A stretch of 24,844 nucleotides of DNA, taken from an uncultured delta proteobacterium. Lineage in GTDB: Bacteria > Desulfobacterota > WTBG01 > CAIYCZ01 > CAIRTM01. The stretch's first letter is position 1. Each line of letters begins with the position of its first letter. The translations under genes were made by a program, and so were the position numbers. Location: contig CAWDSQ010000003.1 in NCBI GenBank assembly GCA_963804955.1, positions 1 through 24,844 on the forward strand. Reading direction: 5' to 3'. Below the pieces are notes generated by a model. The model worked only from the letters and a program-made list of their open reading frames with translations. It did not search any database and was not told the origin of the DNA. Positions 4,579 to 17,563 of this stretch are shown here, piece after piece.

Positions 4579-4783
4579 ATGGGAGGGAAAGAGATAGACA
4601 GGCATAGCAGGCCTCTAAAGCACGTGTGGCAGAAGCCGGAGCTGGTTGTGCTGGTGCGAAACAAGCCGGAGAGACAACTGAGGGCCTGCAAGGTCAAGTA
4701 GGGCCCTGTGGCCGGTCATATTGAACAGAGCTTGTAACGGATCAGGATGCGGAGGCTTTTGCAGCACGGGTGGTAAAACCTAA
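4579..4783 (+). pseudogene. RiPP precursor peptide copy 1, frameshifted (Cys/Gly-rich core out of frame with the leader)
   Basis: RBS AAAGGAA 8 nt before ATG 4579. Reads MGGKEIDRHSRPLKHVWQKPELVVLVRNKPERQLRACKVK* (TAG 4699-4701). The +1 frame continues ...LNRACNGSGCGGFCSTGGKT* (TAA 4781-4783). Leader and tail match copy 2. Confidence 0.7.
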
Positions 4784-4895
4784 CAGCCTTTCTGTGTGTG
4801 ATGGGTTTTGGCAGAGTCGATATAAGGGGCTGGGTATGCGCTGCGGGAATATAATATATTTTATACCTGCGTGATGCCCGCGCAGGAGACTTTTT

Positions 4896-5141
4896 ATGAG
4901 ATGTGGAAGAAAAAAGACCATATGGATGCCAAACAACAACCGGAACAAACAGCCCTGGCATAAAAAAAGAGCATGCATGCTGCCGGACAAAAAACCATGG
5001 CAGAGGCCGGAACTGATTGTGCTCGTGCGCAGCAAACCGGAGGAGGCTGTTCTAGGTATTTGCAAAAATCCAAGCTGCAGGCCTCTTAAGGTTCAAAATG
5101 CAACGAGGGCCGGTCGGTGCAGTCTTATCTCCGCTTCCTAA
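4896..5141 (+). CDS. RiPP precursor peptide copy 2
   Basis: RBS AGGAG 7 nt before ATG 4896 (alternative start ATG 4977). Reads ...KKPWQRPELIVLVRSKPEEAVLGICKNPSCRPLKVQNATRAGRCSLISAS*. The WxxPxL resembles the RRE-binding leader motif of PqqD-dependent RiPPs. Confidence 0.75.
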   Translation: MRCGRKKTIWMPNNNRNKQPWHKKRACMLPDKKPWQRPELIVLVRSKPEEAVLGICKNPSCRPLKVQNATRAGRCSLISAS

Positions 5142-5561
5142 CCCCCCAACGGGGATCTTTGTGGTTTTAACCAACTGGCTATATGTGAGGCAGAAAAGGG
5201 GTATATTCGCAGGTAACGTTTTTACCAACTTCCTTATGGACAACGGAGAGAATTTTTTTGTAATGAGGGCTAAAAGGGGAGGCTGTGCTGCCCTCTTATT
5301 TTTTTCTGAAACTGCACGGAGGGGCTTCATGAGAAATTATCATACCACAGTACGTGTCATGTGAAAAGAGCAGGTGGCTGAAAATCTGTGGCGCAGGTAA
5401 TCCCCCGGGATGCGTTTCCTGCGGCTGCAATGATACGTAACTCCAAATGGAAAATTTCTTCAGACATCAATGCCCCCCTACTGCAAACCAAACAGTCATA
5501 CTTCTCCGACACATGCGGCCGGATTTGATAAGACACAATCTGACGAGGAGGGCTTGTTGCC

Positions 5562-6912: not shown

Positions 6913-8028
6913 ATGTCCACAACCATAGAAATTCAGCAATTTAAACTCTGGGACAGGCTGCAGGCCAAGCGGGCCCCGGTTTCTTTCGATCTTGAAATAA
7001 CGGCGCGCTGCAACAACGACTGCCGGCACTGCTACATTAACCTGCCGGCCGGTGATCCTGCTGCGCAGGCCTCCGAGCTCACCGTAGCTGAGATTCTAGC
7101 CATAGCCCGCGATGCTGCCGGCATGGGCGCCATATGGTGCCTGCTGACCGGCGGCGAACCCCTGCTGCGCGAAGACTTTGCCGAGCTGTATCTCGGCCTC
7201 AAGCGCCTCGGCCTGCTGGTTTCGGTGTTCACGAATGCCTGCCTGATCACCTCTGCACATGTGGATTTATTTCAGAAATACCCGCCGCGCGATATCGAGG
7301 TGACGGCCTACGGGGTAACGCGCGAAACCTATGAGCATGTCACCCGTCGACCAGGTTCGTTCAAAGCTTTTCTTCACGGCCTTGACCTGCTGCTGCGCAG
7401 CGGGCTCAAGGTGCGCCTCAAGGCCATGGCGATGCAATCCAACCTGCACGAGCATAGCGCCATTGCTGACTTCTGCCGCGCACGGACAAAAGATTTTTTT
7501 CGCTTCGATCCCCAGCTGCACCTGCGCTTTGACGGCGACCCGGCGCGCAATGCTGAAATAAGCGCGGAGCGGTTAACGCCGGAACAAATTGCCGCCCTCG
7601 AATATGCTGATGAAAAGCGGTTTGGCGCATTGCAGAAAACCTGCGAGACCCTTATTAAAAAAGAGTTCGCCTGCGCGGGCTGCAATCATCTTTTCCTTTG
7701 CGGGGCGGGCGAAGGCAGCTTCACTGTCAGCTATGACGGCAGGTTCAGGCTTTGCTCCTCGCTGTGGGCACCAGGGACGACCTGTGATCTGCGTGCCGGC
7801 ACGCTGAGAGAGGCCTGGGAGCGGTTCGTGCCGCAGGTGCGTGACCTGCGCAGCGCCAACCCTCAGTTCCTGGAGACATGCAGCCGCTGCGAGCTTGTCG
7901 ACATTTGCCTCTGGTGCCCGGCCCATGCCCATCTCGAGACCGGCATGATGGACGGTGCAACGCCCTACTTTTGCGCTGTAGCCCATGCCCGCGCCGCCCT
8001 GCTGAAGGTGGCAGGGAGGAATCCGTGA
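6913..8028 (+). CDS. Radical SAM/SPASM domain peptide maturase 2
   Basis: CNNDCRHC and LTGGEP. SPASM: CGAGEGSFTVSYDGRFRLC...CSRCELVDICLWCPA...YFC. Confidence 0.92.
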   Translation: MSTTIEIQQFKLWDRLQAKRAPVSFDLEITARCNNDCRHCYINLPAGDPAAQASELTVAEILAIARDAAGMGAIWCLLTGGEPLLREDFAELYLGLKRLGLLVSVFTNACLITSAHVDLFQKYPPRDIEVTAYGVTRETYEHVTRRPGSFKAFLHGLDLLLRSGLKVRLKAMAMQSNLHEHSAIADFCRARTKDFFRFDPQLHLRFDGDPARNAEISAERLTPEQIAALEYADEKRFGALQKTCETLIKKEFACAGCNHLFLCGAGEGSFTVSYDGRFRLCSSLWAPGTTCDLRAGTLREAWERFVPQVRDLRSANPQFLETCSRCELVDICLWCPAHAHLETGMMDGATPYFCAVAHARAALLKVAGRNP

Positions 8029-9836
8029 GAGCAGACATTGCCCGTAAGCTGCGCGGCATAATGAAGCTGCATCGCGCTTTGCGTTTAGTCTGGCAGAGCG
8101 TTCCCGGCTGGACATGTGCAAGCATTGTGCTGATTGTTTTTCAGGGGATCCTGCCGCTGATCTCGTTATATCTCATGAAACTGATCGTTGACGGCGTGAC
8201 CGGCAGTATCGGATCTGCCGGCAGCGCCAGGGCCTTCGCGGAGATCGGCCTGCTTATTTTTTGTGCAGGAGCCGTCGGCCTTGCGACTGTTCTGTGCAGG
8301 TCTCTGGCGGAAATAGTCAAAGAGACGCAGGGCAGGGTGGTAACAGATCATGTGGCCGATATGATCCATGCTAAATCGGTTGAAGTGGATCTTGAGTATT
8401 ACGATAATCCGGACTATCACGATACACTTCACCTTGCTCAGCAGGAAGCCCCGTATCGGCCTATACATATTGTCAACAGCCTCACCCAGCTGTTCCAGGG
8501 CGGCATTTCCCTGTGTGCCGTCGCAGGGCTGCTCATCTATTTCCATTGGGCCATTGCGCTTATTCTTTTTGTGGCACTGGTGCCGGGTATTTTTGTCCGG
8601 CTCAAATATGCCGACCAAATGTACAAGTGGCATAAGGACAGGACAAAGACCGAGAGAAAAGCCGATTATTTTCACTGGATGCTCATTGACGGCTCCCACG
8701 CAAAGGAGATACGGCTGTTCAGCCTTGGCCCCTTGTTTATGGACTGGTACCGCACTCTCAGCGCCCGTCTGAGAAGGGAAAAGCTGTCTATCAGCACGCG
8801 GCGCGCTTTGTTTGAACTGATAACCCAGACATGCGGCATTCTTGCCCTTTTCGGCTCATTTGCCTTTATTGCGCACAGGGCGCTTGCGGGAGCGATGACC
8901 TTAGGCGATATGGTGATGTACTACCAGGCTTTTCAGCGGGCACAGGGCTGCCTGCAGGAGGTTCTCACGAGCCTGGCGGGTCTCTATGAAGACAGTCTCT
9001 TTCTTTCGCACTTCTATGAATTTCTTGATTTGAAACCAAAGGTTGCAGATCCCCTGTCGCCGGCGGCATTTCCGGAGACCATGGAGAAAGGCATTGTGTT
9101 CAGCAGGGTGTGCTTTCGCTATCCGGGAAATCCGAAACCCGTCCTCAAGGACATAGACCTTCGCATAGAGCCCGGGCAGGTTATTGCCCTGGTTGGTGCA
9201 AACGGCTCCGGGAAAACGACGCTGGTAAAGCTGCTATGCCGGCTCTACGATCCGGCAAGCGGCACTATCGCGCTGGATGGTATCGATCTCAGGCAGTTTG
9301 ATGTGCGTGCTTTAAGGAAGCATTTCAGCGTTATTTTTCAGGACTACATTCATTACCATCTTACGGCCCGCGAAAATATCTGGCTCGGCAACATCGATGG
9401 TGACCCGGGTGATGAAGCGATTCGTGCCGCGGCTGAACAGACAGGAGTCATGCCGGCTGTCAGCAGGCTTCAAAAGGGCTTTGATACGCAACTGGGCTGC
9501 CTTTTTGAAGACGGCGAAGAGCTCAGTATCGGCGAGTGGCAGAAGATTGCCCTGGCACGGGCTTTTTACAGCAATGCCGGCCTGATTATCCTGGATGAGC
9601 CGACAAGTTCAATGGATGCAAAGGCGGAGCATGAGGTGTTCAATGCCTTCCGCAAGCTTCTTCACGGACGAACGGCGGTGCTTATCAGCCACCGGTTCTC
9701 AACCGTAAGGATGGCCGATTATATTTATGTGCTGGATCATGGAAGCATACTTGAGCACGGCACCCATGACGGACTGATCGGCAGGGGGGGCAAATACGCG
9801 CGCCTTTTTGACATGCAGGCGCAGCATTACCGGTAA
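8025..9836 (+). CDS. ABC exporter, fused permease + ATPase (no C39 peptidase domain)
   Basis: N-terminal TM helices, Walker A GANGSGKTT, signature LSIGEWQK, Walker B IILDEPT, H-loop SHR. Start reassigned to GTG 8025 (GTGA overlap with the rSAM stop, RBS GGGAGG). Confidence 0.92.
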   Translation: MRADIARKLRGIMKLHRALRLVWQSVPGWTCASIVLIVFQGILPLISLYLMKLIVDGVTGSIGSAGSARAFAEIGLLIFCAGAVGLATVLCRSLAEIVKETQGRVVTDHVADMIHAKSVEVDLEYYDNPDYHDTLHLAQQEAPYRPIHIVNSLTQLFQGGISLCAVAGLLIYFHWAIALILFVALVPGIFVRLKYADQMYKWHKDRTKTERKADYFHWMLIDGSHAKEIRLFSLGPLFMDWYRTLSARLRREKLSISTRRALFELITQTCGILALFGSFAFIAHRALAGAMTLGDMVMYYQAFQRAQGCLQEVLTSLAGLYEDSLFLSHFYEFLDLKPKVADPLSPAAFPETMEKGIVFSRVCFRYPGNPKPVLKDIDLRIEPGQVIALVGANGSGKTTLVKLLCRLYDPASGTIALDGIDLRQFDVRALRKHFSVIFQDYIHYHLTARENIWLGNIDGDPGDEAIRAAAEQTGVMPAVSRLQKGFDTQLGCLFEDGEELSIGEWQKIALARAFYSNAGLIILDEPTSSMDAKAEHEVFNAFRKLLHGRTAVLISHRFSTVRMADYIYVLDHGSILEHGTHDGLIGRGGKYARLFDMQAQHYR

Positions 9837-11133: not shown

Positions 11134-11461
11134 AAAGCATTCAATTTACATCAACTGCAATACATGGTATGCATATATGCAAAGAACATACTGGATATCC
11201 AGGCGGCATGCACTGGATGCATCGATTGTACCGGAGGAAACCACGGTCTTTTTATCATTGATCAGGCGGCTGCGCAAGGTCTTTTGAGCAGTGCTCGTCT
11301 TAAACCGTACGACAGGATACCAGTATAGTACAATGGCCGGGAACACTACACCCAGCACAGTTTGATACCAGTGCCGGTGGGGGACAAAAAACGGGATTTT
11401 TATACAGGCAGACTGTAGCATCAGTGTGCCGGAGAGCTTTTTAAGGAGGTTTTTTTATACC

Positions 11462-13654
11462 ATGGAAAATGTTGATCAGGCTTGGGATATCGGCAGTGTT
11501 TTACGGGTAATTATAAAACGACGATGGGTTATTATCGGAGTTTTTATTTTTGTCGGGGCCCTGCGAATCATGTCGTCATACGGGGAAAATCCTGTATATC
11601 AAGCAACGGCAACCATAACAATTGAAAAGGAAAATGCCAATATTGTAACGCTTCAGGATTTTTTCAACTCGGATGCATACAGCGGCGAGTATTATCAGAC
11701 CCAGTATAAGGTGCTGGGAAGCCTGACAATGGCACGGAAGGTTCTGGCAAAACTAAGGGCTGATAAGAACGACAGGTTTTTTCAAAAGGACGATATAAAA
11801 AACACAGGCAAGGAGGGTGTGGCAGAACAAGCTGTTTCCGACGATGTTCTCGCTCTGACTGTACAGGGTGGCTTAAAGGTATCGCCTGACAAGAACAGCC
11901 GCGTTGTCTATATCCAGTATGAGTCAGAAGACCCTGTCGGCGCAGCCACACTGGCTAACACATACGTTGAGACCTATATTGATTATGCGTATGAGACCAA
12001 GCTTGAGGCTGTGCAGAATGCGGTCAAATGGCTTAATGACAATTTGGAAGCCGAGAGGAAAAAAGTTGAGGCAGCGGAGCTGTCCCGGTTGACCTATAAG
12101 CAGGAGTACGGCATCGTTGCAGATGCCTTAACCGATCCGGAGCCGATAGCAGTGCCGAAATTGTCTGAGCTCACTGCACAGGTTGCTGCAGCCGAAAAAG
12201 CCAGGGTTGAGGCCGAAACCCGCTACAAACAAGCCGCAGCATTTGCAGACAACCCCGCTATGCGCGCCCCTGTTCCCGAAGCGTTTAAAAATGATCTGTT
12301 TCAGAAGCTCAGGAGCATGGAGGACGGGCTTGCGCAGCGCAAGGCTGAGCAGTCAAAAAAATATGATGCGGATCACCCGAAAAGGCTGGACATAGAAGCC
12401 CAATTGGCAGACCTTCAGGCCAAAAAAGAGCAGGAAATAAATCGTGTCGTTACTGCCCTGAAAGATGCATACGAGAGCGCCCTTGCGAAAGAGCATTCTT
12501 TACAGGAAGAACTTGCCGCACAAAAGAAGACGGCTCTGGAATTCAATCAAAAAGCTGTCGAGTACATGGGGCTGCGTCGTGATGCGCTGAGCGCCCAGGA
12601 CATGTACAGCATTCTGCTCAAAAGGTTTAAAGAAATATCTGTCGCGGAAAATATAAAAATGGACAATATCCGTTTTATAGACAAAGCAGAAGTGCCGTTC
12701 TTTCCGATCAGACCCAAAAGGGGGCGTGATATATTTCTTGCATGCCTGTTAGGGTTTCTCTGTGCTTTCTCCGTGGCGTTTCTTCTGGAGTATTTAGATC
12801 AGAACATCAATCTGCCTGAGGATATTAAAAACCACTTACACATTCCCTCCCTCGGCATAATTCCTCTGTGCGCAGAACCATCGGCAGAGGGGACCGAACA
12901 CTACCTGGAAACGATAAATGCCCCGCGGTCGCAAAGCAGTGAGAGCTACAGGGGCATACGGACAAATATCCTTTTTTCCTTAGCGGAAAAAGAGCCCCAG
13001 TCGATTCTTGTTACAAGCGCTCTGGCTCAGGAGGGGAAGACTACAACTGCAGCCAATCTTGCGATTGTCATGGCGCAATACGGCTATAAAGTTGTTTTGA
13101 TTGACAGCGATTTTCACCGGCCTCGAGTGCGCAAGCTCTTTAGTGTCCCGCAAGAAGAGGGCTTGTCGAATCTTCTGGTCGGCAATAAGGAAATAAAAGA
13201 AGCATTGTTTGAAACCTATGTCAAAAATCTGTATGTTATTCCATCCGGGCCTATTCCTCCAAATCCTTCCGAAATACTTGGCAGTAAAAGAATGCAGGTT
13301 TTGGTGTCGCAGCTTAAATTGCGTTTCAATAAGATTATTATTGACTCCTCGCCTATTGTCCCCTTGTCGGATTCTTTAGTGATGGCAAAGTCGGTTGATG
13401 GCGTTGTGCTGGTTGTGCGAGCAGGCAAAACTCCCCGAAAAGTTGTCAGGACTGCGGTGGAAAAATTTGATGGCATAAACGCCCCGATACTTGGCGCCGT
13501 TCTGAATAGCGTTGATATTAAAAATGCCGGATACTATTACTCTCGTCAGTACTATGGCTATTCATATGGGGTTGATGGCCAGAACGAGAAGGGTGGAAAA
13601 TCATTAATAAAAAAGCTAAAAAAAATGGTCCCCTTTTTTAGCAGGAAGGTGTAA
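11462..13654 (+). CDS. Wzc/GumC-type polysaccharide co-polymerase with BY tyrosine autokinase domain
   Basis: Two TM segments flank a coiled-coil periplasmic region. Walker A SALAQEGKTT, A' LIDSDFHRP, B IIIDSSP, and Tyr cluster YYYSRQYYGYSYG. RBS AAGGAGGT before ATG 11462. Confidence 0.92.
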   Translation: MENVDQAWDIGSVLRVIIKRRWVIIGVFIFVGALRIMSSYGENPVYQATATITIEKENANIVTLQDFFNSDAYSGEYYQTQYKVLGSLTMARKVLAKLRADKNDRFFQKDDIKNTGKEGVAEQAVSDDVLALTVQGGLKVSPDKNSRVVYIQYESEDPVGAATLANTYVETYIDYAYETKLEAVQNAVKWLNDNLEAERKKVEAAELSRLTYKQEYGIVADALTDPEPIAVPKLSELTAQVAAAEKARVEAETRYKQAAAFADNPAMRAPVPEAFKNDLFQKLRSMEDGLAQRKAEQSKKYDADHPKRLDIEAQLADLQAKKEQEINRVVTALKDAYESALAKEHSLQEELAAQKKTALEFNQKAVEYMGLRRDALSAQDMYSILLKRFKEISVAENIKMDNIRFIDKAEVPFFPIRPKRGRDIFLACLLGFLCAFSVAFLLEYLDQNINLPEDIKNHLHIPSLGIIPLCAEPSAEGTEHYLETINAPRSQSSESYRGIRTNILFSLAEKEPQSILVTSALAQEGKTTTAANLAIVMAQYGYKVVLIDSDFHRPRVRKLFSVPQEEGLSNLLVGNKEIKEALFETYVKNLYVIPSGPIPPNPSEILGSKRMQVLVSQLKLRFNKIIIDSSPIVPLSDSLVMAKSVDGVVLVVRAGKTPRKVVRTAVEKFDGINAPILGAVLNSVDIKNAGYYYSRQYYGYSYGVDGQNEKGGKSLIKKLKKMVPFFSRKV

Positions 13655-16434: not shown

Positions 16435-17563
16435 TTACAGTTCAATCATATCAGCCACCATGTTTCCGATGGCAAGGCATGAAGTGAGGCCCGGCGACTC
16501 GATGCCGATGAGGTTAATGAAGCCCGGCAGCCCCTTATCAGCCTCATGGCGGATGACAAAGTCCCTGGCCGGAGTGCCGGGCGCCTGCAGCTTGGGCCGT
16601 ATGCCAGCGGTATCCGGCTGCAGGTCGTCACGCGAGAGAAACGGCAGATAGTCCTTTACGCCGTCGTAAAATTCCCGGGCATGGCCCGGATCGACATCAT
16701 AGTCAAGCCCGTCAACATAGAAGGCATTGGGCCCGAGCTTTGTCATGCCGTCAAGTGATTTTGTCACATGAATGCCAAGGCCCAGCAGATCCTTGTACGG
16801 CGGCGGGTAGACAAGATGGCTGACAAGCTGCCCCTTTGACGGCGGTATGCGAAAATATTCACCTTTGCAGTAATAGAGCCGGTAGCCTGCCGCAGCACTA
16901 TCAATGCCGGCAGATGCGGCAATGCGCTCGGCGCCGAGGCCTGCGCAGTTGACAACCCAGGAGCAGCGCAGGATGTCCTGCGCCGAATCGGGGCAGAGAA
17001 AATATACGTCATACCCATCGGCTGCCTTGTCGATGCCGATAACCTCATGGCGGCAGGCAACAGTCGCGCCCTGCTCAGCAGCGCGCCAGGCAAGCCTGGC
17101 CGTAAGGCCGTGGGAGTCGATAATGCCGGTTGAGGGCGACCAGAGAGCGCTTATGGCCTCCACATGGGGCTCCAGGGCCTGCACCTGTCGTGCGGTCAAG
17201 AAGCTCCAGATCGTCAACGCCATTGAGCATGCCGCAGTTCATCAGGTCATCGAGTGTAGCGGCTTCTTCAGGGCTTTTGGCGACAATCAGCTTGCCGATA
17301 CGGCGGTGGGGAACATTCCAGCGCCGGCAGAAATGATAGAGCAGGTTTTTGCCCTCCACGCAGAGCCGCGCCCTGAGAGAGCCGCGGGCATAGTAGATGC
17401 CGGCATGGATTACTTCGCTGGAACGGCTTGAGGTTTCCTGCCCGCATGCGGTATTGCGCTCAAGCAGCGCAACTGACCGGCCAGGAAACCTCCGGGCCAG
17501 TTCAGCGGCAACGGCTAGCCCTACGACGCCGCCGCCGATAATAACGCTGTCTACGGTCTGCAT
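16435..17563 (-). pseudogene. FAD-dependent oxidoreductase, L-2-hydroxyglutarate oxidase (LhgO)-like; split by a 1-nt frameshift near 17194
   Basis: N-part: IIGGGVVG, ETSSRSSEVIHAGIYY. C-part in another frame: SPSTGIIDSH, KGEYF, GLGIH, GIRPKL, GIESPGLTSCLAIG. Removing one C from GACCGCA (minus strand) gives a 375-aa ORF. Confidence 0.85.

Follow-up and report, generated by a model that had tools for sequence, protein, structure and literature searches.

Tandem short genes beside a radical SAM cassette of an uncultured delta proteobacterium as candidate members of a widespread RiPP-precursor family

Two genes for radical S-adenosylmethionine (SAM) enzymes and one for a discrete PqqD-type protein raise the question of which peptide they act on. 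They lie in positions 1 to 24,844 of contig CAWDSQ010000003.1 from an uncultured delta proteobacterium (this whole stretch of 24,844 nucleotides is called the window), together with two short, similar sequences, copy 1 and copy 2, between 4579 and 5141. A first-pass annotation, made from the letters alone, had taken both as tandem precursors of a peptide made on the ribosome and then modified after translation (RiPP) and as the substrates of the surrounding cluster. Our analysis makes it likely that both are true RiPP precursors belonging to this cassette and that copy 1 is defective: the proposed role suits copy 2, a credible member of a precursor-like family, and does not suit copy 1, which is interrupted. 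For annotation, an unannotated 54-amino-acid (aa) gene would thus be the likely substrate of an 'orphan' radical SAM cluster.

The precursor family

The shared leader segments were located at 4624-4668 in copy 1 (WQKPELVVLVRNKPE) and at 4998-5042 in copy 2 (WQRPELIVLVRSKPE). As had been claimed, 12 of their 15 residues are identical and both then run into L-x-x-C-K. The 15 codons of the two copies differ by four synonymous and three conservative non-synonymous changes. When these codons were compared among nine copies, which came from three genomes of this genus, 91 of the 121 pairwise nucleotide differences fell on third codon positions. Since the differences are mostly at third positions, the shared leader is real and coding; the codon-level conservation that the first-pass annotation had proposed as a check was found, and the segment is not a non-coding repeat.

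A profile of ten copies from the genus was searched against 1.84 billion representatives of clusters at 50% identity. It retrieved 2577 representatives at E <= 1e-3 and 171 at E <= 1e-10, nearly all of them 50-75 aa long. Residue conservation was counted in 148 proteins, which were the best 150 plus one cluster member, less three with tails of more than 75 aa. The consensus consisted of the leader KKxWQKPELIVLVRSKPEEAVLxxCK followed by a variable core. Conservation was 97-100% at the W and P of WxxP, in the PEE motif and at the first Cys, and 145 of the proteins had CK at W+21. The core was hypervariable with two or three further Cys, giving three or four Cys in total in 134 proteins, and just three proteins had fewer than 19 residues after CK. 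Conservation of the Cys residues was 100% for CK, 95% for a further Cys and 84% for the Cys at -7; the last Cys stood exactly at -7 in 123 of the 148. The C-terminal residue was Ser in 121 and Thr in 15 (Ser/Thr in 136), and the pattern C-x5-[ST]-stop preceded 0.58% of the stops in the organism's own genome (1194 of 206,627). Judged from these alignments, C-x5-[ST]-COOH is the true hallmark of the family, so that the tail first described as C-S-x4-[ST]-stop was real and only slightly over-specified. Together with the invariant CK, this strict end offers concrete sites for chemistry.

The family has very many members, yet it has no Pfam or NCBIfam model. Neither Pfam (34 family peptides) nor NCBIfam (40 family peptides) gave a match at or near cut-off. 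The paeninodin-family lasso model NF033524 weakly matched KKxWQKPELIV over its first 11-12 positions in 22 of the 40 peptides, at 9.7-14.2 bits where the cut-off is 27, and copy 2 gave no match. In the ESM Atlas, matches were only to 'hypothetical protein' clusters without Pfam domains, and the cluster members of ten representatives were either 'hypothetical protein' or nameless. A literature motif search found no paper that prints the family leader; the paper on the linear polyphosphorylated peptides (LPP) of Paenibacillus alginolyticus (lppA-K-B-S-D-N; Popov et al., Nat Commun 2026; PMC13381572) alone matched, through WxxPxL. No paper describing this cassette was found, as judged from listings and abstracts. 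Tandem family copies were common, and two representatives (P0004 and P0013) contained two leader-core units in one open reading frame (ORF), seen as two matched stretches, and appear to be fused or tandem-duplicated precursors. The motif pattern was absent from the peptides at two loci, L054 (Bacteroidales, E 7e-4) and L088. These sequence comparisons supported the assignment of copies 1 and 2 as tandem members of a widespread, uncurated family of putative RiPP precursors.

Copy 2 as the intact precursor and copy 1 as a decayed paralogue

Copy 2 scored 64.8 bits with the family hidden Markov model (HMM) and ends in CSLISAS, with the stop closing at 5141, as the first-pass annotation had noted. 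That annotation placed the two genes about 320 nt apart, which agrees with the 317 nt between starts at 4579 and 4896 (Table 1). The true start of copy 2 is more likely ATG 4977 than ATG 4896, because indels of 1-2 nt occur in contigs of relatives at 4906, 4930/4932 and 4973/4974 and because family members have 8-16 residues N-terminal to W. The leader itself was free of indels in these contigs, and its two changes, at 4988 and 4997, were both synonymous. The contigs, X1 and X3, came from two studies and were aligned to the window at 80% likeness; record 1 of X1 spans 4615-5076, and record 11 of X3 spans 4653-4801. Past codon 33 (CKNPS), X1 and X3 carry 72 unlike letters in place of 5077-5144. 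To judge from these alignments, the leader of copy 2 is kept between strains while its core is swapped, which bears out the conserved leader and variable core first proposed.

A ribosome-binding site had been assigned to each gene. The AAGGA that lies 9 nt 5' of the copy 1 start is plausible, whereas the AGGAG 5' of ATG 4896 is the 3' arm of the hairpin 4866-4886. This hairpin was not significant by count, since the terminator scan found one site against 1.7 expected in shuffled sequences. The region 3' of copy 2 (5130-5185) folded no better than shuffles (z -0.07), giving no sign of a terminator there.

Copy 1 is not a single ORF. Its leader frame ends with LRACKVK at the TAG 4699-4701, and the CSTGGKT-stop that was first given as its end lies in the +1 frame and closes at 4783; the earlier description had joined two frames, and of the two proposed Cys-Ser tails only that of copy 2 continues its own leader. 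The copy 1 leader also reads PERQ-L where the relatives and the family have PEE.VL. The truncated ORF scored 37.8 bits with the family HMM. When copy 1 was read through with X at the break, the score was 44.3 bits over HMM positions 6-60, and the product had four Cys, a Cys at -7 and a C-terminal Thr.

The relatives' contigs suggest how this state arose. In X1 and X3 alike, the GGG at 4701-4703 is one G shorter, which places leader and core in one frame; the leader frame there enters the window's +1 frame and reaches C-x5-T-stop. Relative to the window, both have one more base after 4669 and two more after 4675/4676, and because of these three added nucleotides at 4669-4676 the PEE.VL..CK stretch is canonical in both. 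At 4699, X3 has G (GAG, an intact gene) and X1 has T, which keeps the in-frame TAG. Copy 1 was thus seen in three states: intact (X3), with the nonsense codon only (X1), and with nonsense codon, frameshift and damaged leader (window). We read these states as progressive decay and copy 1 as a decayed paralogue; by its contig, X3 represents a strain with an intact copy 1. Because of the TAG, the 1-nt shift and the damaged PEE motif, copy 1 is not a credible substrate here, and copy 2 appears as the sole credible substrate of the two.

Other explanations of the two ORFs were considered. Copy 1 might function as it stands, either because the 40-aa leader ending in CKVK competes for or regulates the recognition protein or because the TAG is read through. 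The TAG is common to the window and X1, X1 combines it with a canonical leader and a core in frame behind it, and the ribosome-binding site is plausible. Against this, the window frame is shifted behind the TAG, the near-invariant PEE.VL is damaged, and a product with so few residues after CK would join only the three exceptions among the 148 proteins, so that a functional copy 1 is very improbable. Decoding of the TAG as pyrrolysine was rejected, as neither PylS above cut-off nor PylD was found in the 87%-complete own genome. A programmed +1 frameshift was rejected by inference, because AAG-TAG-G contains no slippery codon and the relatives simply lack the base. Alternatively, copy 1 could be intact in the organism, with the extra G and the TAG both being assembly errors. 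This would fit the GAG and GG of X3, the position of the extra base in a GGGCCC run and a DAO-family gene (16438-17563) that is also split by a frameshift in the window. It is improbable, because T4699 is also present in the independent X1 contig and the net loss of three nucleotides with substitutions at 4669-4677 is no simple homopolymer error. A run with the source reads was not found: the three DNA runs listed share just 0.06-0.07 of words, the best 0.07, and no RNA run was listed. Since the DAO-family gene is likewise frame-split, the extra G alone may have come from the assembly; copy 1 would then still be broken by the TAG together with its damaged leader. Finally, both ORFs are short and lack Pfam and NCBIfam matches, as would be expected of a non-coding repeat or chance ORFs, but that explanation, to which we give next to no weight, is already refuted by the third-position bias and the 2577 homologous short proteins, and synteny kept in several phyla also stands against it.

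The enzyme cassette and its proposed chemistry

The genes around the two copies are listed in Table 1. For the HprK-like kinase, GHSxxGKST and CDDR were invariant in eight homologues from eight loci, and the AlphaFold model was confident, with a predicted local distance difference test score (pLDDT) of 80.7. Foldseek matched the model to phosphoenolpyruvate (PEP) carboxykinases and to HprK/P (1ko7, 1kkl and 2qmh) at E 5e-6 to 3e-5; PEP carboxykinases and HprK/P have a common fold. A sequence search of this protein against the PDB gave nothing significant, and the assignment is made because of the invariant motifs, the confident model and the Foldseek matches.

Table 1. Features of the window that bear on the two copies and the cassette
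Feature	Position	Strand	Details
HprK-like P-loop kinase, 322 aa	2077-3045	+	NCBIfam ScmC E 3.2e-5, HprK-related kinase B E 1.3e-3 (both below cut-off)
Radical SAM enzyme A, 374 aa	3042-4166	+	Pfam Radical_SAM 63.1 bits
Copy 1, leader part	4579-4701	+	40-aa ORF from ATG 4579, closed by in-frame TAG 4699-4701
Copy 1, core remnant, ALWPVILNRACNGSGCGGFCSTGGKT-stop	4703-4783	+	+1 frame relative to leader; stop 4781-4783
Terminator-like hairpin and T run	4866-4895 (hairpin 4866-4886)	+	8 pairs, 6 of them G-C; between the copies
Copy 2, intact precursor (putative)	4977-5141	+	54 aa from ATG 4977; open from ATG 4896 (81 aa); stop 5139-5141
Discrete PqqD-type recognition element, 103 aa	5562-5873	+	Pfam PqqD (PF05402) 60.9 bits
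Signal-peptidase-like (S24/S26) domain fused to GNAT acetyltransferase, 340 aa	5870-6892	+	Pfam GNAT 52.3 bits
Radical SAM/SPASM enzyme B, 371 aa	6913-8028	+	Pfam Radical_SAM 68.1 bits; SPASM E 0.01, below cut-off
MsbA-like ABC exporter	7878-9836	+	MsbA model E 1e-83, below cut-off; ORF overlaps enzyme B gene
PF14907 (NTP_transf_5) nucleotidyltransferase, 441 aa	9808-11133	+	Pfam 212.1 bits
Wzz-type chain-length determinant/tyrosine autokinase	11426-13654		3' of cassette

The profile of the PqqD-type RiPP recognition element (RRE) matched PbaB1 (9x90_B, 3.6e-7) slightly better than LppB (9x8z_B, 7.3e-6) in the PDB, and also PqqD and TbiB1. The peptidase-like part of the GNAT fusion matched archaeal signal peptidase I TIGR02228 at E 1.2e-6 (28.4 bits against a cut-off of 51.85), the nickel superoxide dismutase maturation protease at E 3.7e-7 (below cut-off) and Pfam S24 at E 0.008, and it contains the motifs GFSM, IHRV and GDN. 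Stand-alone S24 proteins of relatives passed the Pfam cut-off at loci L081 (34.2 bits) and L051 (30.4 bits). The exporter orthologue at L030, a locus of the same genus, begins at the stop of the radical SAM gene, and the true start of the window exporter is probably near 8025. Among the neighbouring genes, the DAO-family oxidoreductase, which is similar to L-2-hydroxyglutarate oxidase and lies on the reverse strand, is spread over two overlapping frames, one covering Pfam positions 1-122 and the other 118-353. The split points to a frameshift near 17080-17220 and hints at assembly indel errors or a second pseudogene.

The check proposed in the first-pass annotation, whether homologues lie beside PqqD and radical SAM genes, gave a positive result in several phyla. 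Within the genus the enzyme set was found in the window and at L030 and L033. The gene set recurs in metagenome-assembled genomes (MAGs) of Pseudomonadota (L050), Desulfatiglandales (L051, partial) and Chloroflexota (L048, radical SAM only), and at L050 and L051 PqqD and S24 accompany radical SAM. A frequent order was transferase, kinase, radical SAM, PqqD, S24, radical SAM, precursor(s). In the phylum survey the family occurred in 12 of 401 genomes. Eleven loci from 10 of the 11 other family-bearing genomes were scanned with Pfam (L080 was left out), and radical SAM was present at nine, PqqD at six, S24 at five and PF14907 at four. The own genome has two more canonical intact precursor genes, on contigs 11 and 32, and two sister genomes have three each. 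Only one PqqD and one HprK-like kinase were found in it; its single enzyme cassette presumably also serves the two remote precursors.

From these assignments a pathway can be proposed. The discrete PqqD protein would bind the WQKPEL leader, which contains the [YW]xxPxL motif first pointed out in the annotation; the LPP paper reports that discrete recognition elements of lasso and LPP pathways bind [Y/W]xxPx[L/V/I] (PMC13381572). It would present the peptide to both radical SAM enzymes, and the core would be cross-linked, most likely via its cysteines. As happens in paeninodin-type lasso peptides, the HprK-like kinase may phosphorylate the Ser/Thr conserved at the C-terminus, and the PF14907 transferase may extend that phosphate. 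The signal-peptidase-like domain would remove the leader, with a predicted cut near PEE|AVL, 16 residues past the aromatic residue by analogy to the LPP spacing. The N-terminus so formed may be acetylated by the GNAT domain of the fusion, and the ABC pump would export the product. The kinase, transferase and peptidase neighbours thereby offer a reading of the conserved C-terminal Ser/Thr. By analogy, its phosphorylation has about an even chance of being correct, and thioether cross-links have an even to slightly better chance.

Leader binding had been suggested for modelling. The complex model of PqqD with copy 2 scored 0.45 against 0.00 for the best control, at least 80% of contacts were shared between runs, and the partner pLDDT was at least 48. 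Of 157 solved complexes 116 attained this mark, as did two of 215 mismatched pairs, but only 18 of the 157 attained it with a score <= 0.60, as did both mismatches. Like complexes are already solved (9x8z and 9x90), so the pass may reflect these look-alikes, and the model lends weak support to RRE binding of the copy 2 leader.

The cross-link need not be a Cys thioether of the sactionine/ranthionine kind that the first-pass annotation had suggested. The radical SAM enzymes might instead form C-C or ether cross-links, epimerise or methylate, while the Cys serve as disulfides or metal ligands after export. Consistent with this, no NCBIfam maturase model reached cut-off for enzyme A, SPASM was absent from it by Pfam, its nearest solved relatives were BlsE (2.8e-12) and PqqE (7.2e-10) and not a thioether synthase, no curated thioether-maturase model was reached in the cluster, and the SPASM signal of enzyme B was weak. 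On the other hand, the Cys positions are the most conserved features of the core, and the nearest solved relative of enzyme B was SkfB (1.4e-10), which is a thioether synthase. We regard a non-thioether modification as rather unlikely; it concerns the chemistry only and is compatible with copy 2 being a precursor of this cassette.

Several observations weigh against the interpretation of the two copies as precursors of the cassette, or against parts of it. Copy 2 lacks the usual GP and its second Cys is unusually early. No curated maturase, ScmC-F or lasso model reached cut-off. At ten loci (L026-L029, L031, L032, L052, L053, L083 and L084) no maturation gene was found in the examined flank; L083 and L084 belong to one genome, and both lack radical SAM, PqqD, S24 and PF14907. 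According to the LPP paper, the LPP kinase phosphorylates core Ser3, not the C-terminal Ser, and rejects Thr (PMC13381572), and 15 of the 148 family members end in Thr. Because the LPP kinase targets core Ser3, the C-terminal phosphosite is drawn from the analogy to paeninodin only. The X1 and X3 contigs have a depth of 4.6-5, at which single differences can be errors, and the DAO-family gene shows that copy 1 is not the only gene of the window split over two frames.

The surroundings of the family genes were varied. The contig 32 paralogue, an orphan (L027 8459-8635, reverse strand), lies directly 3' of a hybrid histidine kinase gene and a response-regulator-Hpt gene and 5' of trpD, and this arrangement (L027, L029 and L032) is kept in three genomes of the genus; a comparable kinase-then-peptide arrangement was seen at L084, in another family. 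The contig 11 paralogue, a second orphan (L026 8057-8236, forward strand; also L028), follows PilZ and PAS-LuxR genes and at L026 stands directly 5' of a Wzz/ParA-type chain-length/tyrosine-kinase-like gene. Bac_transf, GT4 glycosyltransferases, a PEP-CTERM protein and a BBP2_2 porin were found at family loci L050, L079 and L090. At L030 in a sister genome (6715-7808), the enzyme A orthologue is seemingly split into 114-aa and 254-aa ORFs, the latter aligning with the C-terminal Cys-rich part of enzyme A, and an HprK-like gene is absent upstream there. At the loci L079, L081, L082, L085 and L087, which belong to one family of the phylum, a DUF5838 gene, an FAD-binding monooxygenase-like gene and a third radical SAM/SPASM gene lie between two precursor genes. 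The family member at L083 (9669-9887) is accompanied by an outer-membrane factor, an HlyD-type protein and a C39-peptidase ABC exporter, with no radical SAM gene in the scanned flank, which suggests an alternative route of processing and export. In an Actinomycetes MAG (L053), no maturation gene lies within 10 kb of two transposase-flanked family copies at 76-264 and 1833-2033; a gene for a dimethylamine methyltransferase is close by.

A far-reaching extension would be an undescribed RiPP class spanning phyla, cross-linked by radical SAM enzymes and phosphorylated or glycosylated at an invariant C-terminal Ser, in which one cassette serves scattered precursors and the product is a secreted signal for exopolysaccharide or biofilm control, not an antibiotic. 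We consider this unlikely as a whole. The signal function was suggested because precursor genes lie behind hybrid sensor kinase/response-regulator-Hpt and PilZ/PAS-LuxR genes. The extra precursors behind sensor kinases and beside polysaccharide genes bear on the purpose of LPP-type peptides.

Comparison with known systems

The cassette shares features with four known systems. SynChlorMet resembles it in combining an HprK-like protein, a PqqD relative and two radical SAM/SPASM proteins, and SynChlorMet models were among the best NCBIfam matches for four window genes. The scores were far below the cut-offs, at 23.4 bits against 125 for ScmC, 28.3 against 100 for ScmD, 82.1 against 400 for ScmE and 66.1 against 400 for ScmF, and SynChlorMet appeared in no paper found by the literature search. 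Sactipeptide and ranthipeptide clusters likewise have radical SAM/SPASM-type enzymes beside short Cys-bearing precursors and an RRE. The window RRE, however, is separate and not fused to an enzyme, and the curated models were not reached (StsB 66 bits against 625, PapB 35-38 against 340, SkfB and AlbA far below cut-off). To our knowledge, kinase, transferase and signal-peptidase-like genes are not part of sactipeptide or ranthipeptide pathways.

These three genes, which the first-pass annotation had missed, place the cluster next to the phosphorylated LPP and paeninodin pathways. In both paeninodin and pseudomycoidin the C-terminal Ser is the target of HprK-type kinases, and hexoses are attached by PsmN (PMC6993621). 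The likeness to these lasso pathways comprises the W-type leader, a Ser conserved at the C-terminus, an HprK-type kinase bearing a DD metal motif, a transferase of the PF14907 type, a discrete PqqD and an ABC pump. In contrast, no lasso cyclase (asparagine-synthetase-like) and no B2 cysteine protease was found by Pfam and NCBIfam among 14 window ORFs; radical SAM enzymes and a serine peptidase stand in their place, and the NF033524 cut-off was not reached.

The LPP set, as given in PMC13381572, consists of an SpI-like peptidase, an RRE, a kinase of the HprK-like type, an uncharacterised NTP transferase plus a pump that resembles MsbA. There, the clusters lie in capsule loci, YxxPxVLxHQxIxFETxxS is found in the precursors, core Ser3 is polyphosphorylated by the kinase, and the RRE helps the peptidase to cut 16 residues past Tyr (PMC13381572). 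All five enzyme types are present in the window. The leader is likewise of the [Y/W]xxP type, each locus has one to three precursor genes whose products are alike at the N-terminus and vary at the C-terminus, and the clusters lie in or beside polysaccharide loci (here the Wzz/tyrosine kinase gene; also L050, L079 and L090). The differences begin with the two radical SAM enzymes inside the window operon, a feature recurring at nine of 11 loci, by which the peptide departs from the 'linear' criterion of LPP; neither 'radical' nor 'rSAM' occurs in the text of the LPP paper (PMC13381572). The GNAT fusion in this genus, the WQKPEL-type leader consensus in place of YxxPxVLxHQxIxFETxxS, the invariant Cys with the C-x5-Ser/Thr end, and the lack of a conserved Ser at core position 3 behind the predicted cut also set the family apart. 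It further occurs outside Bacillota, to which the LPP paper restricts LPP and paeninodins (PMC13381572).

On these sequence comparisons, the window cluster is best described as a radical-SAM-bearing, W-leader variant beside the LPP and paeninodin pathways, outside Bacillota. The tailoring set of the LPP/paeninodin type would then be used far beyond Bacillota and on a different scaffold, and the family would join two lines of RiPP research, that on radical SAM cross-linking and that on the phosphorylated LPP/paeninodin pathways.

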